Assembly (NCBI GenBank): GCA_051294905.1
Contig: CM119373.1
Location: 6,572,001-6,636,000 of the forward strand
Direction: 5' to 3'
Source: Botryllus schlosseri
Taxonomy: Eukaryota
Length of the DNA: 64,000 bases
Both the position numbers and the translations under genes were made by a program. The notes below the pieces were generated by a model, which did not search any database, was not told where the DNA came from, and saw nothing but the letters and a program-made list of their open reading frames with translations. Shown piece by piece: positions 4,288 through 42,750 of the stretch. Position 1 is the stretch's first letter. Every line of letters starts with the position of its first letter.

Positions 4288-4346
4288 CTACAAGACCAGC
4301 TGCCGCGGCTGCTTAACCCGTTACATGGCACGATGTCTTCATCGTC

Positions 4347-4474: not shown

Positions 4475-4665
4475 GGCGGTCAGCAATCTGATGATAATGA
4501 GATAGTCACTGTGAATATTTCTATTGAAGCGGATACCATGAGAACTGTCGTCGAGGATTTTATAGCCGAAAATCAACACCTCAAATCCCTTCAACAATTC
4601 TCTATGACATATGATCAGCATATGCCCAACAGTTTGACCCCAATTCGTATTTTTCTAAATATGGA

Positions 4666-11339: not shown

Positions 11340-12261
11340 TGCGTCCGGTGCGAAATTCCTCTTCATAACGCGTTTCTTTATCGACGACTTCACGAATATA
11401 TCTACCATCCGGCTCACCAATGTACATATCAGAACGGTCCATTACGCACTGATTCCTTTTATACTTTACGTCCCTACTTAGCGACACGCATTTTTTTGCG
11501 TTTCGAGCAAGTCTGCGTTTTCGTCTCCGTGACGTCCGCTCGGGCAAGTCTGGACCTGTCTAAACCTGCTCGACCCACTCTCGTTTTAAAATTCTCTCGT
11601 TTCGGTGGGTCAAAGTATATTAACATAAATAAACAAGAATTTTCATATTGGTGAATTCCCCTAAGCTACACCATGCGCTTCTACACTTGCTAATGTTTTA
11701 AACTCTACGGTTATCTCTCGTGATCTTGGTATATCTCGACAGTCATCGTTGTTTTTCCTGTCCAGTTCGGCCATGTTTGAGTACATATAGATAGCCCGCT
11801 GTAGTAGTTCTGACTCCTCCATTTTGGCCAGTCTTTTACATGCATCCAAGGGCTCCCTTCACTATCTTGAAGTAATTGATTTGCGTCTTCTGCGCTGTCC
11901 ACTACCGATATGCTCTTTTCTAGCTTCATCTCATGTTTTCGGGACGTTGATCCATAACCAAACGACTTTTTCGTCCCTCCTTCTTGTTCTAGTATGAACA
12001 GTTCTGGCTCTTCCGTTGCCCCAATATTGTCATTCGACGATACTACTTGTAGATACGTCTCAGTAACAGTGTCTTTCGTGCATCCCGTAAGTGGCGTAGA
12101 TTTGTCCTTATCTGTCCATTCGTTTAGCCACAACATTGGTGGCCCGTTATTTCCCGTAAATTCTCCATCCGTAGATGTTTCCGAATTCGTCATGTGACCT
12201 TCCTCATTGTATGTATATTTTGTGCTTGCTTTTTTCGGCCTCGGCACGAATGCGTACGGGT
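11340..12261 (-). mobile_element. Virus-like element copy A (divergent lineage), distal part: capsid-like C-terminus, intergenic block and start of the basic ORF
   Basis: Translation aligns to copy B with 150/174 identical residues by hand (PYAF...TMTV). A 2-nt frameshift lies near 11735. 'MDRSDMYIGEPDGRYIREVVDKETRYEEEF' matches the copy B ORF at 24503. Confidence 0.9.
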
Positions 12262-15200
12262 CAAGGCCCGAACTACTGCTATCTCCGGCTAAGCAAATTC
12301 GCGTGATTCCCATGCGCAGATGCATTGTGGGTAGGTACACGGTTAAGTGATTTACTACATGGGCTTATGGAAAAGCGGTCAGTTTTTAAATATATTTGAT
12401 TCGTATCGGGTCCGTAGTATTTTATGCGTATAGAGCTTTGAATGACTAATTATTCTAACACTCAGGATTTGTTTCAGCCTAATATCTCGTGTCAGTATAT
12501 TGATATTATGTGTAATTCGACCTGTCGAAGATAGCCCATTCATCAGGTGGTAGTGGTAGTCTTTGCTGTGTCGGGGTTGGTGCAGTAAATGGCCGAAGAA
12601 GATATCCAATGAGTCGTATGCAAGAAGTATTTGTGACGGCAGTTGTGATGAAGAGTCGATAGTAAAGCGTCGATACCCCAGAACTTTTTACCGGTAAGTG
12701 AATAACAGAATAAGCATAGCAGCAAGACATGTATGTCCAGATCTGCCACAGTTGTAATAAATAGGTCATGGTAAAGTGATAGCAGAACATTTCGTTGCCG
12801 CTAAATGAATGAAATGACCAGACCAGACTACCAGCAGAAATCCGTGTCAACATATCAGCTATGTAATGTTCATCATCAATATCTGTAATATTCTGTAATA
12901 ATGCCAATCTCACTCTTCGTATTTCGGCCAATAATCTGCTTAGTATTTAATTCTGGCTTATGCTATGTAGGCATGATGAGCAGGACTACAGGGAAAAGAT
13001 ACAATTCATGACCAATGGGTTTTCTTCAACATAGCTAAAAAAGGATATCTTTTTCAGATGATAAACAAATACTGTGGAATTTGCAAATTCCATCGTCGAG
13101 TTCATCTACAAATTCCATCGTCGAGTTCATCTACATAGTCCTCATAGTGTTGTTCGAAACTGTCAATTTATTTATTCAGACACATTTTTCAAGGTTTACC
13201 TTTGAACTGCTTTAGCTTTAGAAGGCTGCCTCAATCTTGAATACAATAGCCTATGGAGTGAAAAGTGACAGATAATTTTATCAGACAAGATATCACAGCT
13301 CATAACAAAGAATTGTATTTCGTGTGCTTTGCTTCATACAATGCTCCGTATAATGCAGCATTCCTACTAATGAATCGCTGAAAGGAAGATGGTTAGAAAA
13401 CATTAAAAGAAAAAACTGGGTTCCATCAAGATCGTCAGTCATCTACTCCGATCATTTTCCGGTAAGTGCCATTTACCGTGTGGGCCAGTTGATACGTTTC
13501 AGGGAGAATGCGGTGCCAACGAGATTTCTGAACTCTCCGAAATATACGAGGTCAAAGGTACAGTAGGCATCTATAAATTTACTTCTAAAGTTTGCCTTTG
13601 TTGATGTGAAATTCTTGAATTTTAGGCTTCCAACAAACGGCAAGCGAGACTAGCAACACTTCAAGATAAGAAACGTCATTGTAAAGCACAAACCGGTGAA
13701 GCAGTTGTCCATGACCACAGTTACTGTGCACGTACCTCTCCTCAAAAGCTCATTCAACAGCAACGCCGTAGAGTGGTACAAATTAAAAAGAGGTTGCATG
13801 CTGCCAAAATGCGGACAGGCCACCTGAGAAAAAAAGTGAAAACTCTATATGAGGTCATTGCATCTCTAAAAAAAAAATGATCAGCGATTTGTATGGAGAA
13901 GTAATGTCACAAAAATTCTGTCTTCTACCAAGTGAGCTGTTGCAGCGCATGAAGCTACAAGCTGGTGGAAGAGGAGTCAAATACTCTAAAGAACTGCAAT
14001 CATTTGCAATGACGCTGCAGTATTATTCTGCTGAACTGCAATCATTTCCAATGACGCTGCAGTATTATTCTGCTATTTTGTGCGTCAAAATTTTCAACTC
14101 GCTCTTCCCCATCCGAGTGTGATAAGAAGCTAGTATGGAAAACTTCCTGCTGAGCCTGGCTTTACTGGTATTGCATTTTCTGCTACAAGAGGAAAAGTAG
14201 AGGCATCAACAACTCCCGCAGTGGGGTGGCCTTCCACGTCACTGTGCCGCGACAAAAAAGGAGGTCTATTAAATTGCAAATGCGATCAGAATGGGTTAGT
14301 TTATTGTACCAAGATCTCAGATATTAAGCCCTAACTTATCCCACATTTTACTTTCAGTTCACCCGCAATTACGTCGAGGGCGACGTCAAGTCAATAACAA
14401 TTTAATTTATTTCTGTTTTTATTTTTTTATGTTGTTATTTTAATAGAAAAATCATTCAAACCTCGCGTTTCTCATTCAAACCTCGCGTTTCTCATAACTG
14501 AAGCTGGTGTTACTGAAAACGAAAGTTTTGGTACGAGACAGTACAGCGCGGTATTTCCTGTGATCCCAGAAATGGTTGATCGAAAGTCAGGTTGGAATGC
14601 TGCGTCTATTAGGGAAGGAAGGGATCAGGTAGGCAGCAACCGCGTGATCCCAGAAATGGTTCATCAGAAAACGCACTAGGTAGAAATGCTTCATCTAGCA
14701 GGCAAGGAAAGGATCATAGGCAGCCACTACGTGATGCCTGGCTGATCTGATATATTGACCTTGCTTTCCGTCGCATGCCATATTTTTTTGTCGCTTGATC
14801 TTATATGGTATCTTAGTTAGAACTATTAGTTTTCATCCAGCGTACCCTGTAAATGCCTCCTCTTTACTTTGCCTAGGCCCAGGTGGGTGTAGATTACCTC
14901 AGGCCGTTGCGTTACCTTGCTATCTTTTCATCGATGATTAATCTGATTAAGTCAATTTCAGTGAGCACTAGGCAATTCTACCCTGATCTGAATATGGACT
15001 CGTGCATTCATCTTGTAATTCTTGTTTCTCTCATTCGATGATATAAATATAATATTTCTATCATTTGATTACCTCTGCAGAAATCGCTAACCCATATTGC
15101 TACACATAACTCACATATCCTCACTTCAACTTTCTAGGATTTATTTGGACCAATTTGACACAATGAATAAGTAGAATAAAAATTAGATCGTATAAATTTG

Positions 15201-16011
15201 ATTGTAGTTGTGCTTTTGCGATGTCACATGATGCTGAATTTTCCTCCGTCAGTGGTATTCATAGCCACTACGTAGCTGGCAGCAATAGCATTGACATCAG
15301 CGCCATTGTAGTGAGAAGATTTCGAATCGAATCCAGGGCGATTCTGAGGCAGTCTCTGGTAGTAACTTGAAGCTGGTGGTCATAGCCATAGATGCTTTTA
15401 CTACCGTACCTATAGATACAGTGCCTGAAAGATAACAACAAAACTGACATGCAATGCAATCAGTTGATAGCTTGGTTAATTATTTACACTTGAAATGTGC
15501 CTGTTTGTTGTTTTCAAGATTTGTAATAGTAAATTGTTTGTTGTTTTTCAAGATTTGTAATAGTAAATTACAGTGTGTGCTTGTATCAACAATTCGAGGA
15601 CGCAGTACATGAAACTGAAGCTATAATGCGTAAGAAGACAACATCAGCAAGCTCCATTAGGATTAATGGCATCATATCTAAATCAAATTGCCATACACAG
15701 TAGCCTACCTGAAACTGAAGCTGTATAGGGATAAAGAAGACAACATCACCAAGCTCCCCGAGTTTAGCAATCTACATCAGGAAGATATTTGCAAATGAAT
15801 ACATACGGTGACACATATATAACCTTATCTTGTCCGAACCATCGAAATTAATACCTCCAGGCCAAGGAGTAATCAAAACAGTCACATCACCCATCCACTT
15901 TTGCCTTGACTACCAGCTTAACGCGCAGCTATCAACTTAACCCAAAGATGGCGGCCAATGGATCACGCAAATATCGCGAGTAGCGCACTCCAGTGTTTAT
16001 ATAGCTCAGTG
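12262..16011 (+). mobile_element. P-element-like insertion (THAP9-type remnant) splitting virus-like copy A
   Basis: 8-bp TSD gtacgggt at 12254-12261 and 16012-16019; the viral frame H-P-Y-A-F is restored on removal. CA...TG ends. THAP remnant 'WLENIKRKNWVPSRSSVIYSDHF...NAVPT', a DHSY motif, and 'YSKELQSFAMTLQYYS' at ~13300-14150. Confidence 0.85.
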
Positions 16012-16660
16012 GTACGGGTGCCTTAGTGTTGTCCGATAATCCTTTATCCTAAAGTAGCGGTACATTTTTAACGGATTGAATCCTCTTTCAGAGTCCCACG
16101 GCCAAACTCATTTTCTTTTTTTTGTTCTTGAACGCGCTCGACGTTGATCCCGTTTCGACTGGTAATGCGAAACATTCTTCACGGATACCACTTTCTCTGA
16201 AGTGACCGTCACCATATGTGTCCAGCTGTCCACCCACTCGTGATCGATCTGGTTAGGCGCCGTTGTGGTTCCCGTTTCTTTTTTCGTGCAAAACTTTGCG
16301 ACCTCATTGATTTTTATTCTGTACTCTGCTGTTTCCGTTCCCTTCCAGAGAAACCCTGCCACTGTATGAACTCCCGTGCCCCCAGCGCCGCCTCCGGAGC
16401 TCCGCACAGTTGGCTCGCTCCCAGCAAAGCCCCCCATCTTGCCAATCGTGCTGTCCGCCGCCATGGTGACCCTTTTTCCTTCGCTATCCGGTGTAATTCT
16501 TTTTGGCTCGGTCTCTCCGGTCTCTGGTGTAGCCCCTTGTTTAGTAGGCCTCCCGCGCTTTCGTTCGCCACTTGTTCCAGTTCTGGACTGTGAAACGCTA
16601 CTGTCGCTAGGAATATTCTCTCCTCGCCACTTGTTCCTGCTCCTTCAGTTGCTTCTTTTT
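16012..16660 (-). mobile_element. Virus-like element copy A, proximal part (Gly-rich start of the capsid-like domain and overprinted ORF)
   Basis: 'MAADSTIGKMGGFAGSEPTVRSSGGGAGGTGVHTVAGFLWKGTETAEYRIKINEV' is homologous to copy B 23229 onward. Frameshift from a short tggaca duplication near 16225. Upstream boundary approximate. Confidence 0.9.
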
Positions 16661-16814
16661 TTCTTTTTTTTTTCTTTTTGAAGCTCAGTTGTTGCCAATA
16701 GACATGCCATTATCCTCTTGGGATCAGGCTAGTTTGGTTCTCGGTTCGCTCGGATATACACCTGTTTCAGCAGGTTGTTGTCTGGTCTGTCAGTTTTCAT
16801 CATTGCTTCCCCAT

Positions 16815-19800
16815 AACATACACATATATATACACATACACATATTACAACATATATACACATACATGCGCACATATCCATACTTACATACATATAATGG
16901 CCTCTTTATGGTTTCATGGGCCCGCTACATACTCATATGCACGGAGGGGAGGATGCTGCGCATTTACGCTAGTACAGTCAGGAGTCTATCTAAAATCATT
17001 GGAAGTTGGCCTTTTAGGCGGAGTCTTGATCTCGCCGTGTTCATGACACGTTTGGTTGTGGAGTTTATGTACACGGTTATGTCGCTTTCCATTTCATTTT
17101 CCACTTCCAATATAATTCGGTTTTGTATTACTGTTTCTTTGTATATGGTCACGAGGAGTTTCGTTGCGAGATTGTTCTTGTCCCAGTTCTTTTCTTCAAG
17201 GAGTGTTCCGCTTAGGGATGCCCTAGCTCCCGTCGCTTGTCTCAGGGATGTTTCTAGTCGATCAAGTATCTGACGAGCAATTGGGCATGTATACAGGATG
17301 TGGTCTAGTGTCTCTTTTTTACATCCACATTGTCTGCATGATGTTATAGCAGGTTTTCCAGTTTTATGTCCTAGTATAGTCTTTTGTTTTCTCTTCCAGC
17401 CGAATAGGTATCCGTCGCAGGCGATACGGTATGTTGTAACTCTTTCTTTGTTTTTGATCAGGCCGGATACGTATCTGTTTTCATTGCAAGTGATTTCCAA
17501 TTGATTTCATTGTTTCCTTGTTGGTCTGTATTCCCATGTATATTTTTGATTTCATTGTATATGTCTTTTAGTGACGCTGTTTGCCAGTCTTCTTGTTCCC
17601 AATTTAGCTTTTCGGCAATGCTTATATTCATTTTCCATTGGTTTGATAGAAGTGTGCGGTGTGGCATGCTATTTGTAAAGAGTGGGTCGTTCTATTTCCT
17701 GATCGTGGGCCCAAGCTCGTATAGGGCGTGGAAGTGCCTATACTCCGTTGGATGTTCTATTCTCGACAGTTTTGATATTTTTTCCAGCTCACATGCCTTG
17801 GCCTGGCTTTGGGGGTGTAGGATGTTCATTCCGCCTTCTTCTGGTTTGTTGTTCTTCTGATTATCTCTATTTTTTCAGGATGCCAAAGATATCTGAAAAT
17901 CGTTCTCATGAGGCGTGCTGTAAATTCTGGCGTGGGAGGTATGGTCCTTGCATGTAGGGTTATAATTGAGGAAGCGAAGGAGTTTATTACGTTCTTTTTT
18001 CCCATCCACGTGAGCTGACGGTGGGAGTTGCTCATTAGCTTTCCTTCGATTTTCTTTATGACGCCCTCCCATGTTTCGTTTACCTGATCGTGTCCAAAGT
18101 GCTGTCCTAGTATCTTGATGCTTTTAACGAAGTTTCCTTTGAATTTTTGTTCTCTTATGTGGTCTAACGCAGGGGTCGCCAACTCAAAATAGGTCGCGGG
18201 CCACTTTTCCAAATTCCTGGAGGCCGCGGGCCGCATGACATCAATATCGATATAAAAGTAGGCAACGCAGTTCAACAACCACGTCTGATAACTCTACGGT
18301 ATTACAACGCTGTGCTTTCTAACATAGGCGACGGTTATAGTCACCACAGAAAAACTAATATTTTATTGAACAAACACAAATACAACAAAAAGTATCATGA
18401 TCATCAATGTCATTATATTTTGGACTATGAGCTGTACACGATACCTGACAATGACAACACTCTTTAGCCGCTAAAACAGGGGTGGCCAACATTTTTGTAA
18501 TTCACGGCCGCATTTCGCGTACTCATGTAGCCTGCGGCCGCATACCGGTGGTTAGTCGTGATACACTAGCTGGGGCCAAATACCCACGTTACCATGTCCA
18601 TGTCCATTGCCGGTACACTCCGAACTAATCTATATGCACATATCGGCTTACTATGCGCACCAAATCGTTAGTAGTTATGTTGTAAAGAGCCACAGAGAAC
18701 CAATCTGTAGTCGCGCGAAGCGCGAAAAATTTTTCATGTTCATGAGTGAATTTCGTCAATAAATATTAGTATAGTTTCACATATTACTATAAAATATTTA
18801 TCCTTTATCGGCCAATGTGTTCAGATCCCCAGATACAGCTGATATGCAGGGGGTATCTGCGAAAACTTAGGGTTGTTATTACAAGTGTCGACAGCCGCAT
18901 AATTTTCCTTCTACTGCTGCAGATTGGCCACCCATGGATTGAAGAATCAATATTGGGGTTAGCTATACACGGTAGGCCTACTTGCTAGACAACTATCTCC
19001 TCGTAAAGCATGGTTTTTGGAGCGCCCGAAGTCGTTTTGCAGGCGTCTCGGTCTTGGCAGTGGTGGGCCATTGCACGTCAAGGCAATATGTCCATTCGTA
19101 CCAGCAAATTCTTCATCCATGGAATGATATTACCATGCCGAAGCCGTATCAACTAGTGAGTAATAGTGATAGTGGGCACATAGAATGGCTCACTTTGAAA
19201 AACAACAACATTATGTTTCAACTGCAATCAATTTTAGCGTTTCAACATGATTTACTAAGCGTTTTTCTGCATTTTTTTCAAATCAGGTCGCGGGCCGCAA
19301 AATAGGACCTCGCGGGCCGCATGCGGCCCGCGGGCCGCGTGTTGGAGACCCCTGGTCTAACGTGTTCCCGATGCACAGGATCTGAGTTTTTTCTTTGTTT
19401 ATTTTTTGCCCTGTGGCTTTTTCGAGGTATTCAAATTCTTCGTACGCTCTCTCGATCGACTCCAGCTTTGTCGTGATGATAGTGAGGTCATCGGCGTATT
19501 GCTGTGTCTTCATATTGTGTTTGCCAATTTTACATCCTGTTATGTTTTTGTTCCCCAAAATTTTGATCATCAGGGGTTCCGCTGTCAGGGTGTAGAGATA
19601 CATCGATAGTGGACATCCTTGTCTCAGCCCTCTTTGGATGGGGATTTTGTCTGTGATGAATCCGTTTATCCAGATGCAGCTTGTGGCATTGTCATATAGT
19701 TTTTTAATCAATTTTATTGTTTTGGTTCCGAAATTGAATTTTTCCAATATTTGGAATATTTTTCTAATATTAGGAATATATATGGGTGAGGGACACGGTC

Positions 19801-22029
19801 AAAGGCCTTTTCCTGGTCAAAGTTTGCTATGATGATTGGCTGTTTCTTTTCTTTCTGGTATTCCATTACCGATTTTATATTCCGTAGTAGATCTGACATT
19901 TGCTTCGATGGGACAGCGCATTTTTGTTGGGGGGATATTAGATGGTCAATATTTTCTTTCATTCTGTTCGTTACGATTTTCATCATGATCTTATAGTCGA
20001 CATTTGTCAGGGAGATAGGTCTCCAATTCTTCAGCATCTCGGGATCTCCCTTTTTGAATATGAGGTTCACTGTTGAATCCGTCCATGTATTGGGCATGCT
20101 GTTTAGGAGTAGAGCGTTGTTGTATAGTTGGACTAATTCATCCTTAATAAGGTAGTAGAAGGTAGAGTAGAACTCTGACGATAGGCCGTCTGGCCCGGGG
20201 GACTTAAGTCTTTTTTTGTTGCTCGATTGCATATTTTATTTCCTCTTCTAGGATTGGCAGGTCTTGTTGCTCATGCTGTTCTTTACTTAGGAGTTCCACT
20301 AGGTTTTTTTGCATCTTGGCATTTGTGTTTTCATTCATTTGCCAAAGTTCTTGGTAGAAGGAGTAGACTTCTTGTATTATTTCTTCTTTGTTTTCTGTTA
20401 TGGTCCCGGATCGTTTTTGTACTCGGGCGATTGATTTCCGTTGTTGCTTTGTTTTTAGTTTTTCAAAGAATTCACGGTTTGGCTTCTCGTCCTCTTCTAG
20501 CTCTTCCCTGTATAGCAGTTTCATTTGGTGGTGTAGTTTGTCTTTTTCCATTTTCTTCAGGTTTTTTAGGATGGTTTTTCTCTCATTTGAGGGCAGGTTC
20601 TTTGATGCGAGTTGTTGATGGAGTGTGTTCTCTTTTTCTTTTTGTTTTCGTTTTTCCTCTATCCCGAAAGAGATGGCAGTTTTTTTATTTATTTTTGTTT
20701 TAAAATCATCCCACCACTGTGCGTGGTTGGGGTATTCTACTTTCCTCAGTGCGGCTTCTTCATATTTTGATTCCAGTATTTTCCTGAATTGTTTCTTAGC
20801 ATAGTGGGTTGTATTATTTTTCCAGTTGCCGCCACCCCATTTCTCCGGGTCTTTTGGCTTTACGATGATTCTGAGGTAGTAGTTGTGGTCTGATATTCCG
20901 TTTATATGATGCTTGACTGATGTCCTCGAGCGGGCTATTTCTTGAGTGGTATAGACCCTATCTATTCTCCTTGAGTTGAGATTGTTTGCATTTGTATACA
21001 ATCTTGTAAATGGATAGTGCCATCTGTATAGGTCTATGATGTTTTTCTGCATTGTATATTCCTTCCAGATTTTTGCTGCTTCAGATAGTTTGAAGGCGTG
21101 ATGTTTTTCGCTATCTTCTTTGGCCGTAATCATATTAAAGTCCCCCGCTATAATCATATTTCCATGGTACAGTTGAAGGTTATGCGTTACTTCCTTGTAG
21201 GAGGTCTTTTTTCTTTGTTATTGGTTGGCGCATATATATTTACTATGGTTAGTCTGACCTCGTTGTTGGCGCTGAGGCTTAGGGTCTGGACCCTGTCTGG
21301 CACAATGATTTGGTGGTCAAGGGTATAGTCTCTCACTTTTTCTTTTTTTATAAGAATGGTGGTTCCCTTGTAGTAGTGTTTGTCTCCGGCCTGGTGTGGT
21401 TCTGAATTGAAGTTTTTGTAGTATGGGAGATCGTTATTATTAGCCCATAGTCTAAATTTCCTTTCATGTAGGCGGTGGACTTCTTGGACGCAGTATAAGT
21501 CCGCTTTTGAGCTCGTCACGAAGTGTCTGAATTCGTCCCAGCGTCTCTGTATACCATTTACATTTATGGAGATTAGGTTACATCCAAGAACTCCCGTTTG
21601 TTGATTTGTTTCTTCTGGAGGTTGGGTAGGGGTTTGGCCTTCCATTTCAAGGTAAAAAAGGGGTTTGCGTTGCTTTCTTCTTTTATTTCGTATGTTTTGA
21701 TTTTTTTCTCATCTATTTTTTTGTATTTTTTTTTTTTGTCATTTTTTCCTTCCTCGGGGCTGCTGTGGTAGGCTCTCTTTGGCCTTGGGGTATTTTTGTT
21801 TTTTTTTTTGTTCTAATGGGATGGGGTTGCAATCCAGATGCTTGAAAATCTCGACTTGGAGGGGTTCCGATTCCGTTTTATGTACACTTGATACTCTTTT
21901 CCCTCTATTTCTGTTTCTTGGGGGGATTTTGGGGGGTTCCGAGGAGTCAGATGGTTCAGGATCATGCATTTTTGAGGGGGTTTTGTTTTCTGCTGAGCCC
22001 TCTGGGTTTAATTAAGTCTTCCTGATTGG
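16815..22029 (-). mobile_element. L1/Tx1-clade LINE, 5'-truncated within ORF1, ORF2 frameshifted
   Basis: APE endonuclease 'LISINVNGI...YCVQEVH', 'IIAGDFN', 'RRIDRVY'; RT 'KSPGPDGL', 'NWRPISLTNVDYK', 'DQEKAFDRV', 'GLRQGCPLS', 'QYADD'; C-terminal 'CRQCGCKKETLDHILYTC'; (TATG)-like 3' tail at ~16815-16895. Confidence 0.95.
18170..19354. mobile_element. Non-autonomous hAT element inserted in LINE ORF2
   Basis: TIRs caggggtcgccaac / gttggagacccctg. 8-bp TSD gtctaacg at 18162-18169 and 19355-19362. LINE frame (GNTLD|HIREQ) rejoins on removal. Confidence 0.95.
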
Positions 22030-24290
22030 AAGGATGGAGATCGAGAGGGGCAAAATTAAGAGCGGAGGCGGAGGCAGCAAGAATAGAAAGAGAGAAAGGA
22101 TGGACACACGCATTCGCAACAGCGAGAAGGAGAGAATACGATGCAATACATACACCAGTGAGGGATCATCTTGGAATACCAGGAATGCAACATTTCCTGG
22201 AAGCATTGGGATTAATAGGCGAAACGAACATAGATAATGTAAAAGAAGCAACATACAAATGGGCAAAGTCAAAAATCGAAGAACTGAAAACAGCACTGGG
22301 AGAAGACACAATGGTGGGACAACTAGTGGACGAAATGTTTGTAGTGGATAGTACAGGACAGTCCGACTGGCATGACCTAGAAAATTACAGACAATCAATC
22401 ATGGACATAGTAAATCCAGAAAGATCAGCAGAAGAAAGAAACGAACTAAATCAAGAAGAGTTAGGAGAAGGAGTAACAGAAACGAATAAATATGGGACAG
22501 GAATAACAGAAGAGATCGAGAATGAAGAAGAATACATATACAGTGATGAATCAGATACAGAATTAGACCAAGAAGAGCTGGGAGCGGGAGTAACTGAAAA
22601 TGACCCAGAGGGAATAACAGATGAGATAGAAGAAAGAGAAATAGAAGAATTCGAAGAATACTGTGACATGAGATTATCGGAAGTGGAAAGTGAGAATAGA
22701 TATGCACAGCAGTGGGCGCAATACGAAACGGCAGTAGAGGAAGCATTCAACAGATTTCAACAAAGACGTCATGAACAAAGGGGAACACCAATAATGCAAT
22801 GGCAAATACCGGGCACGAGAAGGAGATGGGAAGGGTTAGGAAGAGCATTGAGAGTGGCGATACCTAGGAAACGTAATAGAAGGGGGTGGATAAAGGACAG
22901 ACCAGGGTATTGGATGAGAAAAGACGGGAAAATAGAAAAAAGAAAAAGGCGACTGCCTCTAGAATGTATAAATATCGCGAACGAGCGGAGAGCTGCCAAA
23001 AGAGCGAGAGATGCAGCAGGAGAAGGAGCAACAACAGAAGGAGAGCCAACAGAAAAAGCCGGAAGAGTTGAGAGCAGCGTACCTAGCGACACTGGTACTA
23101 CACAGCCCAGTACTGGAGGAAATAGCGAACGAAAGCGCGGGCGGGATTCTGAGTCAGAACGTGGGGAAGAGACCGGAGAGACTATCCCAAAAAGAGTTAC
23201 ACAAGAGAGCAAAGAAAGAAGGGTCGGAATGGAGGCGGACAGCTCGGCTAGCAAAATGGGGGTTGCTTTTGGGGGCGAGCCAAGTGTTAGGAGCTCCGGA
23301 GGTAGCGGAGGCGGCGCTGGTGGGAGCGGTGGCGCTGGGGGCACAGGAGTGCATACGGTGGCGGGATTCTTGTGGAAGGGAACAGAAACCGCCGAATATA
23401 GAATAAAGATAAATGAAGTGGTGAAATTTAAAACAAAAAAAGAAATAGGAACAACTGCAGCGGGAAATCAGATCGACCACACATGGGTGGACACGTATGG
23501 AGACGGACATTTTAGGGAGAGCGGAATAAGAAAAGAATGTTTCGCACTACCAGCAGAAACGGGAAGCACAGCAAGTGCGTTCAAAAATAAAAAGAGAAAA
23601 AGGGTTTGGCCATGGGATACCGCGAGGGGATTCAATCCACTGAAGATGTATAGGTACTTCAGGATAAAGGATTACCGAACAACATTAATGCATCCATATG
23701 CCTTCACACCAAGACCGAAAAAAATGACAACGTCATATGTATACAACGAAGAAGGGCATCTACAAAGCTCAGTGACCAATACAGACGGAGAATTTACAGG
23801 AAATAATGGGCCACCAATGATGTGGCTAAATGAATGGACGGATAAGGACAAGTCAACGCCATTGACAGGATGTACAAAGGACACTGTAATAGAAACATAC
23901 TTACCTGTAGAGAGTACAAACGACACAATTGCAGCGACAGAAGAACCAGAATTATTCATACTGGAGCAAGAAGGTGGAACAAAAAAAGCATTTGGATACG
24001 GGTCATGCTCTAGAAAACATGAAATGAAACTAGAGAAATCAATCTCGGTAGTGGACAGTTCAGAAGACGCAAATCAACTACTTCAGGACAGCGAAGGAAG
24101 CCCGTGGATGCATGTTACAGACTGGCCAAAGTGGAGAAGCCAAAACTATTACAGCGGACTAAGCGTGTGTACTCAAACATGGCCGAATTGGACAGGACTA
24201 TCAACCATGACGGTCGACATACCAAGATCGCGCGAAATAACTGTAGAGTTTAAAACTCTAGCTAGCGCGGAATCGCATGGTGTCGCATAA
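22030..24290 (+). CDS. Distal ~753 codons of the 905-aa large ORF; C-terminal 353 aa (from ATG 23229) is a probable single jelly-roll capsid domain
   Basis: Uninterrupted frame. Acidic tract, then Arg/Lys-rich tract and RKRGR, then a Gly-rich stretch, then a beta-rich region with 'MYRYFRIKDY' and terminal 'ITVEFK', reminiscent of ssDNA-virus capsid strands. Capsid identity is by resemblance only. Confidence 0.6.
23011..23406 (+). CDS. Overprinted 131-aa ORF in an alternative frame of the large ORF
   Basis: Homologous open frame in divergent copy A (16314-16571 and upstream) with a stop at the equivalent position (NIE* vs STE*). Identical in copy C (40957-41352). Confidence 0.65.
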   Translation: MQQEKEQQQKESQQKKPEELRAAYLATLVLHSPVLEEIANESAGGILSQNVGKRPERLSQKELHKRAKKEGSEWRRTARLAKWGLLLGASQVLGAPEVAEAALVGAVALGAQECIRWRDSCGREQKPPNIE

Positions 24291-24332
24291 GGGGAATTCC
24301 CTAATTGTATATATTTATTGCATTGTTACGTT

Positions 24333-24338
24333 AATAAA
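24333..24338 (+). promoter_or_regulatory. Candidate polyadenylation signal of the large ORF
   Basis: AATAAA 43 nt after the stop codon. Not retained in copy A. Confidence 0.45.
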
Positions 24339-24392
24339 GGTTGACCCACTCAGACGAGAAAGTTTTTTTCCTTGGGTGGGCCAGGGCAGGTT

Positions 24393-24449
24393 CAGACTTG
24401 CCCGAGCGGACGTCACAGAGACGAAAACGCGGACTTACTCGAAACGCAA
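24393..24449 (+). promoter_or_regulatory. Conserved non-coding cis-element of the virus-like unit
   Basis: 54/57 nt identical to copy A 11496-11552 (reverse complement). Contains GACGTCA and two GACTT(G/A)C(C/T)CGA repeats. A TATA-like tataataa follows at ~24482. Confidence 0.75.
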
Positions 24450-24502
24450 TTTTATAGTGTCGTTTAAGTAAGGATGCAGACTATAATAAGGCTCATTTGG
24501 AT

Positions 24503-24841
24503 ATGGACGGGTCTGACTTGTATATTGGCGAACCCTGTGGAAGAATTATAAGAGAGATTGTGGATTACGAAAGTAGATATGAAGAGGAATTTAGCTGCCG
24601 ACGAGAGTTCGAATGCATCAAGGACGAGCGTGCCTCAAAGTTACTCAAGCGATTCAAAGAGATTGCGAATAGACGAAGAAGAGAGGTCCGTGAAGGGGGC
24701 AGGAGATGGAGAAAATTCAGAGCGTGGCACGATCGCTACCTTCGGGCGACCCTGACGCGGCCCTATCGGGCCGCAAGGGTCAGGGGTCGCAACGCTCTCT
24801 TAGCCTATTTTGGCTTCGATCGCGTTACTAGCACACCCTAG
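24503..24841 (+). CDS. ~112-aa basic protein of the virus-like unit
   Basis: The first ~30 residues and the start Met are conserved in copy A. Arg-rich C-terminal half. Function unknown. Confidence 0.65.
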   Translation: MDGSDLYIGEPCGRIIREIVDYESRYEEEFSCRREFECIKDERASKLLKRFKEIANRRRREVREGGRRWRKFRAWHDRYLRATLTRPYRAARVRGRNALLAYFGFDRVTSTP

Positions 24842-24916
24842 GGTAAGAAGGTGTCCTTACCCTAGGGTGTGCTAGTTGACCCACCCAAAAAAAAACATTC
24901 CGAGCTGGGTGGGTCA
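24746..24916. repeat. Cluster of three stem-loops (candidate origin or fused termini)
   Basis: GC-rich bulged hairpin 24746-24790; perfect 21-bp stem 24827-24847/24856-24876 with 8-nt loop; 11-bp stem 24877-24887/24906-24916. Confidence 0.9.
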
Positions 24917-24923
24917 GGAAGGA

Positions 24924-24931
24924 TATAAATA
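24924..24931 (+). promoter_or_regulatory. TATA box candidate
   Basis: TATAAATA immediately after the hairpin cluster, 28 nt upstream of ATG 24959 (A at -3). Confidence 0.6.
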
Positions 24932-24958
24932 GAGGCTGAGTGGCGAAAGTGATTCAAA

Positions 24959-25201
24959 ATGAGCACGTACGAGGAGCTGAGCGGATTGGTGAAAGACTGG
25001 AAGCACACGGAACAACTGAAGTGGAGCTATCTAATCAAAGAAGTACTGAACCTGATATTGTTGATAGCGATTGTGGGACTGCTAAGTATAGTTCACTACA
25101 ACGTGACAAGAATTCAAGGAGCGGAAAGACTGAGAAGATTCGCAGACGTAACAGGAGGGCCACCAAGATACGAAGAAACGACAACAACTTTTGAAGCATA
25201 A
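24959..25201 (+). CDS. 80-aa predicted single-pass membrane protein with PPxY motif
   Basis: Hydrophobic 'VLNLILLIAIVGLLSIV' and C-terminal 'PPRY'. Its stop overlaps the next ATG (TAATG, 25199-25203). Present only in copy B. Confidence 0.6.
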   Translation: MSTYEELSGLVKDWKHTEQLKWSYLIKEVLNLILLIAIVGLLSIVHYNVTRIQGAERLRRFADVTGGPPRYEETTTTFEA

Positions 25202-25669
25202 TGACAAAGGCGTTAGCTGTATTGAACAATGTACGGAAGAATGTGAAGAAAATAAATAAACTGAGATCTGCATATACGGAAAATCCAATCTCAAAAGCAG
25301 CAAGAGGGTACCAGAAATTGAAAAAGATAGAGAATGGGGTGGCAAATATTAAAAAAACATACAAAAATCCAATACGAAGAATATACGCAAAATGGGAAAG
25401 AGTGACAGCGAAATTAAATGAGTGGGAACAGGGATACAAAGGAGTGCAAATGGGCATAAGCATTTTCCAATCAGCAACAGGGGCGTTAGTGGAAGATATA
25501 AACAACGGGATTGATTATCCAAGAGCTGTGACAGCAGTGATACAAAGAAGTCTGGAAAATTGGGACAGAGATAAATTAGAAGAAGGATTAAGGATATTAA
25601 AAGTACCAAGAGGAGAAATTGGGAGAATAGGAACGCACTTGCAGAACAACGTGTTCCAAGGATGGAGAT
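25201..25669 (+). CDS. N-terminal ~156 codons of the 905-aa large ORF (continues at 22042 in the circular form)
   Basis: Ends ...NNVFQGWR, and copy C shows ...NNVFQGWRSRGAK contiguous. The ORF-track tail beyond 25669 is flank read-through. Confidence 0.8.
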
Positions 25670-27289
25670 GGACCAAGAATATGGTCAAGCTAGCAATTCG
25701 GCTTTTGAATGGTGTTGTGGAATCAGTATCTTCCAGAGTCCTAACACAAGATGTTCTGGAAGCAGCATTTGGATCTTGGGTAACTTCAGTTGACATTCAT
25801 TAATATTATTCACGAATGTTAAAAGTTAACAGCGGTCTTCGATGAGATACAGCAGGAATCCAGATATTAGCCAAGTCAGTTACTCAGTAAATGCCTTAGG
25901 CCAGCGTTTATGCCAGCGTAAGGCTATAAAGAGAGGGAAAGGTGCCAATACAACATAAGCCTATGTTGATCAAAATTCTTGGACAAAAGTCGGCTAGGAA
26001 CCCATGACCAAGAAAAGATGCAGCAAATGAAGCGAATGTAGTTTCTGGTAGTGTTAGTATGGTAGTTTTTTTCGCCCTGTGGCAAATGCTGCCTATCCGC
26101 ATTCCACATTGAGATTCCCTACCTAAAAAAGGAAAAAAATGCGTTTGTCGAAACCTTGACGTGGTGCATTGGCTGTCTACTAATGTCACTGGCAGAGGTC
26201 TTCCAAGCGAATTCCAGGGTATTTTTGGCAATGACAACGAGTTCCATTCAAGTGCGATTTTGCATACTTACAAGGAGTAAGCTCTGACTATTGTGAACCG
26301 AGATCAAGCAGAACATTGACATTACACAAGGCTCTGGTTCTAGTCATACTCAAGTTTCTGTGGTTATCGGACAGGCACACAAGACTACAAGACTGTTGCG
26401 ATATTATTTGTTATATTCATAGTCGAATTTCTGCAGTTAATATAGGATATATTTTCAATCAAAGCTATTGTGAACTGCATATCGATATAGTTCAAGATCT
26501 TTCCACTTGTTCACTTTGTAGTACTCTTCAGTCGTCCTTTCCATGAATTCATCTCACAATAGCCAATGTACACGAACCAGATATTCTATTTACCTTCTGT
26601 CATTATATTTATATATGTAGCAAACTCGATAAAGGATCAAAGCCACAATATCACATCAATCTCGTGAGAAATGTAACATAGGCTACACGGTAATATTCAC
26701 TAGTCATAACCACTCGCCACCGCTACCTAAATGTTGAACTGTCCAACTAAATCCGACGCAGCTTCAAGAAATACATGACGAATCGCCTTGAACGCCATAG
26801 AAACAAGCGCTGAGCGATCCTGTTTTGGGTGCAGCCATCTGACCGTGACCATTCTGCCGGCTAACAATGGGAGAACAATCGAGTCGTCACTCCAGTCATA
26901 CTGTATAGTGCAACAATGATGATAGGTAGGCCACACGTATAATATTCACTCGCGACCCCAACTCGCGACAATCTCACTTTCTCACTAAAACGAGAGGGTA
27001 CGTCATCGCGAAATGAGAAAAAATAGATCAAGCATGAGTGCGTCCGGCAGGGGTCGCAATTTACAGCGTACGCTAGCTCGAAAATGAAAATGTGCGATCT
27101 TTCGTAAAGCTTCAGAGTCGCGAACGCTGCGTTTTATACATCTTCAACACATTCGAAAAGATGCTACAGCTACGGCATACGAGATATGTTGGCCGGGCAG
27201 ATGGCACGTTGGGCGTTGAAAGCAGGAATGCGAAGCTTGCATTGCTCTGGGTAGCAGTAAAAAGGAAGCACAGGCGGAGGACTAGGCAC

Positions 27290-28648
27290 ATGTGGGTGCA
27301 TCCAATTCTGCAAAGAAGGGAGATGCTAGGTATGTGTGTTATGATATATGTATGGGAGTATCATACCTTATGGAACATAATATTAAACAGGAGAGTTTCA
27401 TGCTTTGGCGAGGGAACTCAGATTCGAAGGACAGGAATACTTTCGAGATTATTTTGCAATGAATGTGGAGACCTTCGATGAGCTTCTGTCGTTGGTCGGC
27501 CCGCTCATCAGCAAGCAGACCACAGTCATGAGAAAGCTAATCTTTCATTGGGTGGAATCGGCTATCACGCTGAGGTAAATAAGACAATAGAGATGACTAG
27601 GTCCAGTTAATTCTGCAGGATGGTGTCAGGTTGCGGTTAGTTATTGTATGCTGATGCTAGCAAACTACTTGACAAATTGATGAATAGTACCAAATAGTGC
27701 ACCTTATTCAAGGTATTCATCATATTGCTCTGTACATAGGTTTCTTTGCACTGGTGATTCATATCGTACGATCGCCTTTTCTTATCGATGTGGGAGGTCT
27801 ACAGTAGCAAAGATCGTCCCAGAGACGTGTGCTGCTATTTGGGAGGCCCTAGCACCCGAGTACATGCCAGAGCCAAAAAAAGACCAATGGAAGCGCATTG
27901 CTGAGCGATTTCAAGATAAGTGGAATTATCCTAATTGTGTTGGCAGCATAGATGGCAAGCATGTTTTGATTCAGAAACCGGCAATGTCATAGGGTCCCTA
28001 TTTTTTAATTATAAGAAGACTTTCAGTGTTGTTTTGATGGCAGTTGTGGATGCTGACGAGCGCTTTATTGCTGTTGATGTTGGTCAATATGGTGCAGTGA
28101 ATGATAGTAAATGTTTCAGTAACTCGCTTTTTGGTAACTCGCTTTTTGGTAAACGTCTGTCATCTAACCAATTAGATCTGCCATCAGCGTCTCCTCTACC
28201 TGGGTTTGACAATCCAACTCATTACGTTTTTGTGGCGGATGAAGCCTTTCCTCTAAACACTCACATCATGAGACCATTTCCTGGCGGATCGCTGAGCAGT
28301 GATGAACGTCGTATCTTCAATTACAGATTGTCACGTGCTAGGCTTGTTGTCGAGAATGCATTTGGGATATTATCCTCTCGCTTCTCTTGCTTTCGAAGGC
28401 CAATGGTTGTTATGCCTGTTCATGTAGATGAAGTGGTCAAAGCCTGTACCGTTCTCCATAATTTTCTTATGAGTGACTCAAATTATTATGATATTGCAGT
28501 GGATGGAGCGCGCCCGTCATCGTCTCTACGGCCACTGGACAGAGCGGGTAGAGGAAGTGCTGCGGCAGCCAAAGCCACACGAGAAGAATTTGTGAGATAC
28601 TTCAGTAGTCTTGAGGGGGCTGTTTCTTGGCAGCAAAAGCGCATATAG
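27290..28648 (+). pseudogene. PIF/Harbinger DDE transposase, intron-containing, frameshifted
   Basis: 'WVHPIL', 'NYPNC...DGKHV', 'FFNYKKTFSVVLMAVVDA', 'ADEAFPL', 'FNYRLSRARLVVENAFGIL', 'LHNF'. Confidence 0.92.
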
Positions 28649-38224: not shown

Positions 38225-39004
38225 TCACAACGATGTGCCTCCCTTTTCTTTACATAAAGCTAGTGTAGTTCTTGAAATCGTCTCCATCTTTTCTGGATGG
38301 TAAAGGAACTCAAAAAACATCTTGTCAAGTTCTTTTGTATGTTGTTTTTCAGATGGATACACTCGCGCCACATATAGTATCTGCGAGATTGCCAAGCTGT
38401 TGAGCACGTTCTTTTTACCGATCCCGGTGAGGTCTCTTCCTTCGCATAGGTTAGGTATGTTTTTAACTTTTGCTATCTTCCTCTTCCACATCTCCTCTAC
38501 ATTCTTCCCCCCTAACAGGAGCCCCAGCACCTTAATTTGTTCGTAATAGAACTAGTTAATCTCTGGATTTTTCATCCTTTCTTTCGCTTCCTTGTTTGTT
38601 GCAAGGATTTGCGTCTTCATTTTGTTTACTTTCTGGCCCGTGGCTCTTTCAAAGTCTTGCAGGTGTTGCAAGACTTTTATTGTGGATTCTTCGTCGGTTA
38701 CTGTTGCCGTTAGGTCATCAGCATACTGTTGCATTTTCATTTTGCCTTGGTTGCCAATTGTAACGCCTCTGATCTCTTCGTCTTTTGTTATTTTTCTTAT
38801 CAAGGGGTCTGCCGCAATGGCGTACAATGACATGCTCATTGGGCATCCCTGTCTTATTCCTCTTTTAATTTGGATTGTCCGCGATATTTTCCCATTTGCC
38901 ACTACATTGCTCGTTGCATTTTCGTACGTCGTTTTGATGTATCTGTGGACTTTTGCTCCAAGATTCAATTTCTCAATCAATTTCATTAGATAATCGTGAT
39001 TCAC
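38225..39004 (-). mobile_element. L1/Tx1-clade LINE RT fragment
   Basis: 'RGIRQGCPMSMSLY', 'QYADDLT', 'GQKVNKMKTQI'. Confidence 0.9.
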
Positions 39005-39701: not shown

Positions 39702-42700
39702 GTAGCGATCGTGCCACGCTCTGAATTTTCTCCATCTCCTGCCCCCTTCACGGACCTCTCTTCTTCGTCTATTCGCAATCTATTCCAATCAGCAACAGGG
39801 GCGTTAGTGGAAGATATAAACAACGGGATTGATTATCCAAGAGCTGTGACAGCAGTGATACAAAGAAGTCTGGAAAATTGGGACAGAGATAAATTAGAAG
39901 AAGGATTAAGGATATTAAAAGTACCAAGAGGAGAAATTGGGAGAATAGGAACGCACTTGCAGAACAACGTGTTCCAAGGATGGAGATCGAGAGGGGCAAA
40001 ATTAAGAGCGGAGGCGGAGGCAGCAAGAATAGAAAGAGAGAAAGGATGGACACACGCATTCGCAACAGCGAGAAGGAGAGAATACGATGCAATACATACA
40101 CCAGTGAGGGATCATCTTGGAATACCAGGAATGCAACATTTCCTGGAAGCATTGGGATTAATAGGCGAAACGAACATAGATAATGTAAAAGAAGCAACAT
40201 ACAAATGGGCAAAGTCAAAAATCGAAGAACTGAAAACAGCACTGGGAGAAGACACAATGGTGGGACAACTAGTGGACGAAATGTTTGTAGTGGATAGTAC
40301 AGGACAGTCCGACTGGCATGACCTAGAAAATTACAGACAATCAATCATGGACATAGTAAATCCAGAAAGATCAGCAGAAGAAAGAAACGAACTAAATCAA
40401 GAAGAGTTAGGAGAAGGAGTAACAGAAACGAATAAATATGGGACAGGAATAACAGAAGAGATCGAGAATGAAGAAGAATACATATACAGTGATGAATCAG
40501 ATACAGAATTAGACCAAGAAGAGCTGGGAGCGGGAGTAACTGAAAATGACCCAGAGGGAATAACAGATGAGATAGAAGAAAGAGAAATAGAAGAATTCGA
40601 AGAATACTGTGACATGAGATTATCGGAAGTGGAAAGTGAGAATAGATATGCACAGCAGTGGGCGCAATACGAAACGGCAGTAGAGGAAGCATTCAACAGA
40701 TTTCAACAAAGACGTCATGAACAAAGGGGAACACCAATAATGCAATGGCAAATACCGGGCACGAGAAGGAGATGGGAAGGGTTAGGAAGAGCATTGAGAG
40801 TGGCGATACCTAGGAAACGTAATAGAAGGGGGTGGATAAAGGACAGACCAGGGTATTGGATGAGAAAAGACGGGAAAATAGAAAAAAGAAAAAGGCGACT
40901 GCCTCTAGAATGTATAAATATCGCGAACGAGCGGAGAGCTGCCAAAAGAGCGAGAGATGCAGCAGGAGAAGGAGCAACAACAGAAGGAGAGCCAACAGAA
41001 AAAGCCGGAAGAGTTGAGAGCAGCGTACCTAGCGACACTGGTACTACACAGCCCAGTACTGGAGGAAATAGCGAACGAAAGCGCGGGCGGGATTCTGAGT
41101 CAGAACGTGGGGAAGAGACCGGAGAGACTATCCCAAAAAGAGTTACACAAGAGAGCAAAGAAAGAAGGGTCGGAATGGAGGCGGACAGCTCGGCTAGCAA
41201 AATGGGGGTTGCTTTTGGGGGCGAGCCAAGTGTTAGGAGCTCCGGAGGTAGCGGAGGCGGCGCTGGTGGGAGCGGTGGCGCTGGGGGCACAGGAGTGCAT
41301 ACGGTGGCGGGATTCTTGTGGAAGGGAACAGAAACCGCCGAATATAGAATAAAGATAAATGAAGTGGTGAAATTTAAAACAAAAAAAGAAATAGGAACAA
41401 CTGCAGCGGGAAATCAGATCGACCACACATGGGTGGACACGTATGGAGACGGACATTTTAGGGAGAGCGGAATAAGAAAAGAATGTTTCGCACTACCAGC
41501 AGAAACGGGAAGCACAGCAAGTGCGTTCAAAAATAAAAAGAGAAAAAGGGTTTGGCCATGGGATACCGCGAGGGGATTCAATCCACTGAAGATGTATAGG
41601 TACTTCAGGATAAAGGATTACCGAACAACATTAAGGCATCCATATGCCTTCACACCAAGACCGAAAAAAATGACAACGTCATATGTATACAACGAAGAAG
41701 GGCATCTACAAAGCTCAGTGACCAATACAGACGGAGAATTTACAGGAAATAATGGGCCACCAATGATGTGGCTAAATGAATGGAAGGATAAGGACAAGTC
41801 AACGCCATTGACAGGATGTACAAAGGACACTGTAATAGAAACATACTTACCTGTAGAGAGTACAAACGACACAATTGCAGCGACAGAAGAACCAGAATTA
41901 TTCATACTGGAGCAAGAAGGTGGAACAAAAAAAGCATTTGGATACGGGTCATGCTCTAGAAAACATGAAATGAAACTAGAGAAATCAATCTCGGTAGTGG
42001 ACAGTTCAGAAGACGCAAATCAACTACTTCAGGACAGCGAAGGAAGCCCGTGGATGCATGTTACAGACTGGCCAAAGTGGAGAAGCCAAAACTATTACAG
42101 CGGACTAAGCGTGTGTACTCAAACATGGCCGAATTGGACAGGACTATCAACCATGACGGTCGACATACCAAGATCGCGCGAAATAACTGTAGAGTTTAAA
42201 ACTCTAGCTAGCGCGGAATCGCATGGTGTCGCATAAGGGGAATTCCCTAATTGTATATATTTATTGCATTGTTACGTTAATAAAGGTTGACCCACTCAGA
42301 CGAGAAAGTTTTTTTCCTTGGGTGGGCCAGGGCAGGTTCAGACTTGCCCGAGCGGACGTCACAGAGACGAAAACGCGGACTTACTCGAAACGCAATTTTA
42401 TAGTGTCGTTTAAGTAAGGATGCAGACTATAATAAGGCTCATTTGGATATGGACGGGTCTGACTTGTATATTGGCGAACCCTGTGGAAGAATTATAAGAG
42501 AGATTGTGGATTACGAAAGTAGATATGAAGAGGAATTTAGCTGCCGACGAGAGTTCGAATGCATCAAGGACGAGCGTGCCTCAAAGTTACTCAAGCGATT
42601 CAAAGAGATTGCGAATAGACGAAGAAGAGAGGTCCGTGAAGGGGGCAGGAGATGGAGAAAATTCAGAGCGTGGCACGATCGCTACCTTCGGGCGACCCTG

Positions 42701-42750
42701 ACGCGGCCCTATCGGGCCGCAAGGGTCAGGGGTCGCAACGCTCTCTTAGC
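39702..42750 (+). mobile_element. Virus-like element copy C: 2,968 nt of the circle plus an 80-bp inverted fragment
   Basis: 39783-39975 = copy B 25465-25657; 39976-42750 = copy B 22030-24804; 39702-39781 = reverse complement of 42606-42685. Confidence 0.92.
39783..42236 (+). CDS. Large ORF of copy C, N-terminally truncated, capsid-like domain intact
   Basis: Uninterrupted frame across the permutation junction. Differs from copy B at two residues visible in the ORF track (M/R, T/K). Confidence 0.75.
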   Translation, partial: FQSATGALVEDINNGIDYPRAVTAVIQRSLENWDRDKLEEGLRILKVPRGEIGRIGTHLQNNVFQGWRSRGAKLRAEAEAARIEREKGWTHAFATARRREYDAIHTPVRDHLGIPGMQHFLEALGLIGETNIDNVKEATYKWAKSKIEELKTALGEDTMVGQLVDEMFVVDSTGQSDWHDLENYRQSIMDIVNPERSAEERNELNQEELGEGVTETNKYGTGITEEIENEEEYIYSDESDTELDQEELGAGVTENDPEGITDEIEEREIEEFEEYCDMRLSEVESENRYAQQWAQYETAVEEAFNRFQQRRHEQRGTPIMQWQIPGTRRRWEGLGRALRVAIPRKRNRRGWIKDRPGYWMRKDGKIEKRKRRLPLECINIANERRAAKRARDAAGEGATTEGEPTEKAGRVESSVPSDTGTTQPSTGGNSERKRGRDSESERGEETGETIPKRVTQESKERRVGMEADSSASKMGVAFGGEPSVRSSGGSGGGAGGSGGAGGTGVHTVAGFLWKGTETAEYRIKINEVVKFKTKKEIGTTAAGNQIDHTWVDTYGDGHFRESGIRKECFALPAETGSTASAFKNKKRKRVWPWDTARGFNPLKMYRYFRIKDYRTTLRHPYAFTPRPKKMTTSYVYNEEGHLQSSVTNTDGEFTGNNGPPMMWLNEWKDKDKSTPLTGCTKDTVIETYLPVESTNDTIAATEEPELFILEQEGGTKKAFGYGSCSRKHEMKLEKSISVVDSSEDANQLLQDSEGSPWMHVTDWPKWRSQNYYSGLSVCTQTWPNWTGLSTMTVDIPRSREITVEFKTLASAESHGVA

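Follow-up and report, generated by a model that had tools for sequence, protein, structure and literature searches.

The window, by which we mean the whole 64-kb stretch of DNA analysed and in which all positions are counted, is transposon-rich animal DNA with LINE, DDE and Penelope-like fragments. It holds three copies of a viral element, and in the most complete of them a cluster of hairpins lies directly upstream of the capsid cassette (Table 1). The supported open reading frames (ORFs) of the element are all on the plus strand and are arranged as two cassettes. With H0 ahead of P1 and H3 ahead of P2, each cassette thus consists of a hairpin, a TATA-like box and an ORF. The similarity between H0 and H3 was matched by 7 of 2000 shuffled sequences, and their stem is conserved with zero compensatory changes among three sequences; H3 is more readily understood as a promoter-linked hairpin, one of a duplicated pair, than as a telomere. 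Copy A retains the H0 stem core with a different loop (about 11572-11612, minus strand) and a near-identical P1 block, which is also common to divergent contigs.

Relative to copy A, the 112-codon ORF of the first cassette has mismatches at 11 of 34 first, 4 of 34 second and 15 of 33 third codon positions, a substitution pattern whose avoidance of second positions marks the 5' part as predicted coding sequence. The ORF is probably a truncated form of a longer gene, since contigs of two samples depart from it after 24727 (see below). In the second cassette, the stop codon of the 80-aa ORF overlaps the capsid start codon, and the mean hydropathy of its probable helix is 2.4 across 19 residues. 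This ORF has no match in Pfam, and we take it to resemble the small membrane proteins coded alongside parvoviral capsid genes. A second AATAAA lies on the minus strand at 24314-24319, to the left of the plus-strand signal; it is retained in copy A, which has lost the plus-strand one, and no long minus-strand ORF terminates there. Pfam searches with the element's ORFs returned no Rep, NS1/SF3 or HUH match in any copy, and the six frames of the window contain no Walker A pattern. In the RNA run X15, of which about 6 in 100 were read, 39 reads matched the element, all partially, with a depth of 0.01 over the cluster; in four of them the loose end falls at 24555, as it does in a divergent contig from run X6.

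Table 1. Features of the viral element and extent of its three copies in the window.
Feature	Position	Strand	Description
Copy A	11342..16611	-	Older and frameshifted, in two pieces (16611-16013, 12244-11342), 71-75% identical
Copy B	22030..25669	+	3,628-nt unit plus 12-nt terminal repeat (22030-22041 = 25658-25669), opened within the capsid gene
Copy C	39702..42750	+	Inverted B 24651-24739, then B 25465-25669 continuing into B 22030-24804
Capsid gene, 3' part	22030..24290	+	Acidic/basic extension, MEADSS, 353-aa shell, glycine-rich tract, probable single jelly roll
AATAAA	24333..24338	+	3' of the capsid stop, in AT-rich 24291-24341 (29% GC); lost in copy A
H0	24342..24383	.	Small hairpin paralogous to H3, just 3' of the capsid poly(A) signal
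P1	24387..24487	+	Promoter-like block, GACGTCA at 24409 and TATAAT at 24482; putative function
112-codon ORF	24503..24841	+	First cassette, short in copy B
H1	24746..24790	.	GC-rich bulged hairpin, loop TATC, -19.8 kcal/mol
H1b	24791..24826	.	Weak hairpin with two internal loops, -6.3 kcal/mol
H2	24827..24876	.	Perfect 21-bp stem, 8-nt loop, palindrome ACCCTAGGGT in each arm (24835, 24859)
H3	24877..24916	.	11-bp stem, paralogue of H0, immediately 5' of the capsid-cassette TATA box
TATAAA (P2)	24924..24929	+	Probable capsid-cassette promoter; putative function
80-aa ORF	24959..25201	+	Single strongly hydrophobic 19-residue stretch, probable membrane helix
Capsid gene, 5' part	25201..25669	+	Truncated by the right end of copy B; matches P0007 residues 56-163

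Copies B and C are permuted versions of the same sequence and differ by 2 substitutions in 2,775 nt (99.9% identical). The capsid frame is continuous across the junction of B's ends both in copy C and in a metagenomic homologue, P0007, and an X6 contig, from another study, links 25586 back to 22176. Copy C, the P0007 alignment and this contig together show that copy B is one full turn of the unit opened inside the capsid gene. The 3,628-nt unit was integrated in head-to-tail order, from a circle or an array, with its hairpins internal and directly 5' of the capsid gene, and the head-to-tail order that the earlier note had considered agrees with the splitting of the capsid gene across the ends of copy B. 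If the lengths of pieces from a tandem array were spread evenly over 0.5-7 kb, about 0.4% of randomly drawn pieces would match one unit to within 12 nt. Head-to-tail integration does not in itself establish a circular packaged genome, and it is the topology of the free DNA that we infer. A target-site duplication was rejected as the origin of the 12-nt terminal repeat because the left flank is LINE and the right flank, from 25668, is a different high-copy repeat. LINE twin priming was likewise rejected for copy C because its inverted piece duplicates part of its forward piece. Copy A stops short of the hairpin cluster; it occurs in runs X1 and X5, and 17 of 17 listed X5 variants are copy A letters. 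These comparisons with contigs and reads covered 4 of the 24 listed runs, and the depths given here are rough values rather than copy numbers.

A fragmented LINE, comprising endonuclease and reverse transcriptase (RT) pieces on the minus strand, occupies 16650-22029 between copies A and B, and another piece of RT (38552-38986) is found 700 nt to the left of copy C. Each of the three viral copies adjoins LINE remains within 32 kb, and this may mark a capture hot spot or a small-RNA cluster. A high-copy host repeat at 25668-26300 (depth of hundreds to thousands in X1 and X5) breaks off precisely where copy B ends on the right. Elsewhere in the window are fragments of a DDE_Tnp_4 transposase (28037-28648), of a Penelope-like element with RT and GIY-YIG domains (49215-50108) and of DDE_1 (56875-57465). 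A MITE-like insertion with GCGGGCCGC-rich ends and CAGGGG/CCCTG termini sits within the LINE at about 18170-19355, and 44715-45662 is a palindromic repeat array of GACTCGAGTC with several 10-12-bp stems.

Structure of the hairpin cluster

The cluster has a GC content of 57% and consists of four hairpins that abut with zero spacer between their arms, followed 8 nt on by TATAAA; in the minimum free energy fold a 5-bp stem (24739-43/24918-22) encloses all four. H1, H1b and part of H2 overlap the open tail of the 112-codon ORF. The earlier note had described a GC-rich bulged hairpin, a perfect 21-bp stem with a decamer palindrome in both arms and an abutting 11-bp stem ending 8 nt before a TATA box, and each of these was recovered with the same coordinates and structure (H1, H2 and H3 in Table 1). 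Its count of three hairpins was one short, as the weak H1b occupies the gap that it had left. The folding that it asked for gives a stable structure: the segment 24736-24930 folds at -65.5 kcal/mol, against -26.6 ± 3.1 kcal/mol for shuffled sequences (z = -12.5), and 0 of 200 shuffles were as good. No other of the window's 14 perfect stems of at least 10 bp (loop of up to 30 nt) is as long as H2, and self-comparison of the window shows that the hairpin block copies no other part of it. The cluster is not a unique maximum of stability, since the folding energy of 24746-24916, -62.8 kcal/mol, is surpassed by the -63.5 kcal/mol of a 171-nt stretch at 4321. This stretch is the most stable of its length among those sampled, and a 136-nt imperfect palindrome, probably a MITE, lies there at 4343-4478. 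Rfam returned three matches, all of them far under the gathering score and to generic hairpins.

The palindromic arms of H2 had been thought to allow refolding into a cruciform or T shape. For the single strand we reject this as energetically unfavourable: the T-shaped form has -3.8 kcal/mol and the plain stem -23.8 kcal/mol, a cost of 20 kcal/mol. The absence of a nonanucleotide from the loops was upheld, as copy B contains NANTATTAC once, at 24144, within the capsid frame. The cluster contains 11 copies of ACCC/GGGT, where 1.7 would be expected; this count was set aside as a sign of iterons because palindromy scores every site twice or more. Evidence of flip/flop inversion was sought in contigs. 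One unbroken 412-nt X1 contig spans H2 with no difference, bearing in mind that contigs lose rare variants, and 0 of the 15 contig joints listed (of 26) switch strand, a comparison of limited power.

The capsid protein and its relatives

Six relatives of the capsid protein were found among 1.84 billion representatives, as fragments of 54-213 aa. The homologue P0007, which belongs to one of the clusters found, is longer (851 aa; its longest contig measures 5,347 nt). The ORF that closes copy B on the right aligns with 31% identity over P0007 residues 56-163 (E 9e-15), and with the sequence arranged as in copy C the alignment crosses the junction (36% over 817 aa). MEADSS sits 353 residues from the C-terminal end in the window protein and 351 in P0007, and in both of them 13 of the 25 residues that follow it are glycine. 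The shell domain is preceded by a 600-aa extension with a basic patch more than 100 residues upstream. The protein thus has the parvoviral combination of a unique N-terminal extension and a glycine-rich start of the major protein, glycine-rich capsid starts being a mark of Parvoviridae and Bidnaviridae (PMC11945456; this and the other sources cited, apart from PMC13034878, were available in part, and statements from them refer to those parts). The PLA2 motif set is absent from the capsid protein, Pfam yielded no credible match to it (TT_ORF1 and Gyro_capsid included) and PDB sequences gave glycine-linker noise only. Word-indexed protein searches with the shell domain, with alignment A2 and with the 112-aa ORF came back empty. 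None of the relatives' loci was found in viral_contigs, and three loci in metagenome_contigs turned out to be bacterial metallophosphoesterase genes and were dropped as chance matches.

Comparisons beyond sequence alignment point towards viral capsids in general. In the Atlas feature comparison, capsid clusters of parvoviruses, densoviruses and gyroviruses score 0.94 with the C-terminal 317 aa. The top Atlas hit for the shell domain, which we treat as a lead, is a Commensaviricota-rich cluster (0.94) with Gyro_capsid in 37% of its members, and the remaining Atlas rows are mostly parvoviral; the whole-protein search gave leads only, all below 0.9. A single-sequence model had a pLDDT of 30 and a second, still weak, model one of 41.5. 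For the latter, all 50 of the 50 matches listed are viral capsids (best Z 5.0, rmsd 4.9, 135 residues aligned), the best structural matches listed being circovirus capsids at Z 5.0, with parvoviral rows at Z 3.2-3.7. The best Foldseek row for this weak model is the capsid of a parvo-like hybrid virus (E 2e-3), and against PDB there was none at E ≤ 0.001. The predicted shell domain is a probable single jelly-roll fold. The capsid belongs to a lineage that has no name in any of the sources searched. No description of the lineage was found in the main texts of the accessible literature. A parvovirus-related sequence has been reported from one tunicate (PMC5013282).

Breakpoints and a fork beside the first hairpin

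The breakpoints of the copies crowd near H1, in line with the earlier note, at the wider of two scales: five of eight fall within 201 nt (p about 0.002, for points that are not all independent), or four of seven with one end of the inverted piece dropped (p 0.02), and only three of eight within the 78 nt around H1 (p 0.04-0.07, not significant). Among them are breakpoints of copy C, which holds H1 complete (42692-42736) and terminates within H1b. The note had placed both of C's right-side breakpoints here, at B positions 24739 and 24804. The positions are correct, but 24739 is the left end of copy C and lies in its inverted 89-nt piece; C's breakpoints derive from a single event. Hairpins may draw breakpoints without being origins, and the clustering supports an origin modestly. 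Sub-genomic molecules are common among ssDNA viruses, and their breakpoint hot spots include origins and GC-rich structures (PMC3187698).

A fork in the sequence is found just before the cluster. A 2,163-nt X5 contig (depth 165) follows the window from 24421 to 24727 with one difference and departs 19 nt before H1; it also carries a 58-nt piece resembling 24323-24380. The same joint at 24727 is present in X1, at a depth of 3.6. Because contigs from two samples leave the sequence at this point, copy B is probably a deletion derivative of a longer genome; the sequence past 24727 could also come from the host or from an insertion that was rearranged. No more than about 1.8 kb of the X5 contig lies outside the window-like sequence, and copy B plus this length comes to about 5.4 kb (5.3-5.5 kb), near the length of the P0007 contig, an agreement that is suggestive only of a longer genome. 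Depth arithmetic by bin for X5 reproduces 127.5, and the bin 24720-24880 has a depth of 38 where 8 is explained, which means that some contig there matches part of the block. In the same run, two divergent capsid contigs with depths of 84.3 and 80.5 sum to 165, the depth of the P1-region contig, as if different capsid types shared one first cassette through recombination or reassortment.

Origin and identity of the cluster

Our preferred explanation, which we hold to be about evenly poised between right and wrong, is that the hairpins make up an intergenic origin/packaging region, carried by a sub-genomic circle of a small ssDNA virus and preserved here in an endogenous copy. The four hairpins would probably be the control region that the virus retained after losing its replication gene. 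The unit would be a defective circle derived from a parent genome of roughly 5.3-5.5 kb, from which most of the first cassette (likely the replication gene) was lost from about 24728; such a deletion is suggested by the single joint seen in two samples. H1-H1b-H2 would have been retained because the block is needed in cis, serving as the origin and/or the packaging signal. In single-stranded form H1, H1b, H2 and H3 may fold into a multi-arm junction, with an initiator that recognises the block supplied by a helper genome and with H3 cooperating with the capsid promoter, and nicks or polymerase stalling at H1 could give rise to the nearby breakpoints. Defective molecules of ssDNA viruses are similar, in that deletion derivatives keep cis elements and have their breakpoints at structured sites (PMC3187698). 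A possible route to the circle, under any reading, is host-made circular viral copy DNA, as reported for a shrimp parvovirus whose circles can integrate beside retrotransposons (PMC8507497). The present case differs from both systems in that the parent virus is unnamed and the circle may be native or host-made. By analogy, the dispensability for the origin of the equivalent GC hairpins of betatorqueviruses (PMC12772153) would argue against our preferred explanation.

The earlier note had proposed either a replication origin of non-CRESS type or a junction of two parvovirus-like telomeres. A viral, non-CRESS element in head-to-tail order is borne out, there being neither a CRESS nonanucleotide nor a Rep, but the telomere junction fits poorly, because it would be on the wrong side of the capsid gene. 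We regard it as rather unlikely that the element is a linear virus, or a segment of a bipartite one, which replicates by rolling hairpin from ends formed by H2 and H1/H1b that are fused at 24826/24827. The asymmetric bulges of H1 presumably resemble parvoviral left ends, and the capsid start is parvovirus-like in its glycine content, its MEADSS position and its shell length. Bocavirus head-to-tail episomes exist, with a junction between VP stop and NS start (PMC3125170), and a bipartite parvovirus has 3.3-kb segments, one of which carries VP without NS1 (PMC10267136). The order here is the reverse of that in the bocavirus episome: the joint would precede rather than follow the capsid gene, which makes fused telomeres less likely, and the position between VP stop and NS start holds only the small H0. 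The hairpins measure 36-50 nt each, compared with 161-220 nt for the termini described in the sources consulted, and the unfavourable T-form of H2, the unbroken X1 contig over H2 and the lack of any strand change among the 15 joints listed (of 26) all argue in the same direction. The segmented densovirus of Acheta domesticus is alike in that its capsid segment, about 3.3 kb long, lacks NS1 and carries additional small ORFs. It differs in being made up of linear segments that have 208/220-nt T-shaped ends in common (PMC10267136), whereas the second sequence found here shares 24323-24727 and not the hairpin cluster.

It is distinctly unlikely, in our estimate, that the 3.63-kb unit is instead the complete genome or a segment of an anellovirus-like circle without Rep, in which a small protein from the P1 cassette recruits the host replication machinery. 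The unit falls within the anellovirus range of 1.7-3.9 kb, has one coding strand, no Rep, and GC-rich hairpins followed by a TATA box; a small ORF precedes the capsid gene, and sequence past the poly(A) signal turns from AT-rich to GC-rich in a block that is conserved in copy A (PMC13034878; PMC12772153). The Commensaviricota-rich top Atlas hit (0.94, a lead) would also fit. Since the anellovirus origin has been mapped to the 3' side of the poly(A) signal, with the hairpins not being needed for it (PMC12772153), the origin would on this account shift to the H0 side, leaving the cluster to serve the promoter or packaging. Against it, the shell has a glycine-rich start behind a 600-aa extension where anellovirus ORF1 has an arginine-rich N-terminus directly before the jelly roll, TT_ORF1 and Gyro_capsid are without a Pfam match and the other Atlas rows are mostly parvoviral. 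Further, the 24727 fork and the 5,347-nt P0007 contig point towards a longer genome. We consider it improbable that fold-back template switches at the deletion joint made H1-H2 as functionless by-products, with H3 alone being native. The block 24728-24874 does start where the contigs diverge and end where the H0/H3 similarity begins, H2 is as perfect as a fresh fold-back would be, and copy C shows inversion at this spot. However, H1 and H1b are imperfect and bulged, the four arms abut exactly, the block matches no other part of the window and the excess X5 depth at 24720-24880 (38 against 8) speaks for a matching contig. Finally, the joining of an episomal or contaminating viral contig into a host scaffold is highly improbable: the near-identity of B and C would be expected of such an assembly artefact, but the two differ in flanks and breakpoints, an old degraded copy is adjacent, and the rough X1 depths of 8-12 (B only), 19-21 (B plus C) and 25 (copy A) correspond to two single chromosomal copies and not to an abundant episome.

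The element thus shares features with several virus groups. Like Parvoviridae, and especially those with capsids of Hamaparvovirinae size, it has a long N-terminal extension, a basic patch and an internal start (PMC3125170, PMC11357303), together with a glycine-rich tract before a shell of about 350 aa, a one-strand layout of two cassettes, hairpins and a possible head-to-tail form. It differs from them in the lack of NS1, of a Pfam or sequence match to known VP and of a PLA2 motif, and in having short hairpins that lie 5' of the capsid gene instead of between VP stop and NS start. Parvoviral terminal hairpins flank the coding region, whereas the copies here are permuted with the hairpins internal; a bocavirus-type episome is similar, with its joint after the capsid gene. 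The features shared with Anelloviridae are the Rep-less unit of 3,628 nt with one coding strand and the GC-rich hairpins before the TATA box, circularity being the conditional part of this likeness. The element departs from them in its two promoter modules and its invertebrate host, which would fall outside their known range of birds and mammals. Cressdnaviricota are alike in their intergenic stem-loop, breakpoint clustering and jelly-roll capsid, circovirus rows reaching Z 5.0 (PMC3187698), and unlike in possessing a loop nonanucleotide, an HUH Rep and a far shorter capsid gene. The element cannot be filed under Parvoviridae because it has no NS1, under Cressdnaviricota because it has neither Rep nor nonanucleotide, or under Anelloviridae because it has the wrong capsid start.

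Short-read assemblies usually lose the hairpin ends and origins of small DNA viruses, so that an intact chromosomal copy is a rare record of them. Unexplained circles may be segments, and contigs often end at anellovirus stem-loops (PMC7000223). What is preserved here joins capsid anatomy of the parvovirus type to a layout that is head-to-tail, Rep-less and similar to that of anelloviruses, in a lineage almost without database presence. If the missing part encodes an ordinary NS1, the element would be either a defective episome or a parvovirus-like virus that is divergent and has its gene order reversed. Should that part lack NS1, the element would inform how ssDNA viruses lose their initiator, a loss described, in the available part of PMC13595969, only for anelloviruses. 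A bolder proposal, which we put forward tentatively and think somewhat unlikely, is a family, so far unnamed, of marine-invertebrate viruses with circular ssDNA, which combines a parvovirus-type capsid with non-CRESS, non-NS1 replication, and whose genomes would be either circles lacking Rep or segments made up of repeated hairpin-promoter-gene-poly(A) modules, the four-arm junction serving as origin. If true, this would mean that an invertebrate chordate harbours either a second, independent instance of the anellovirus lifestyle or a circular sister group to the parvoviruses.
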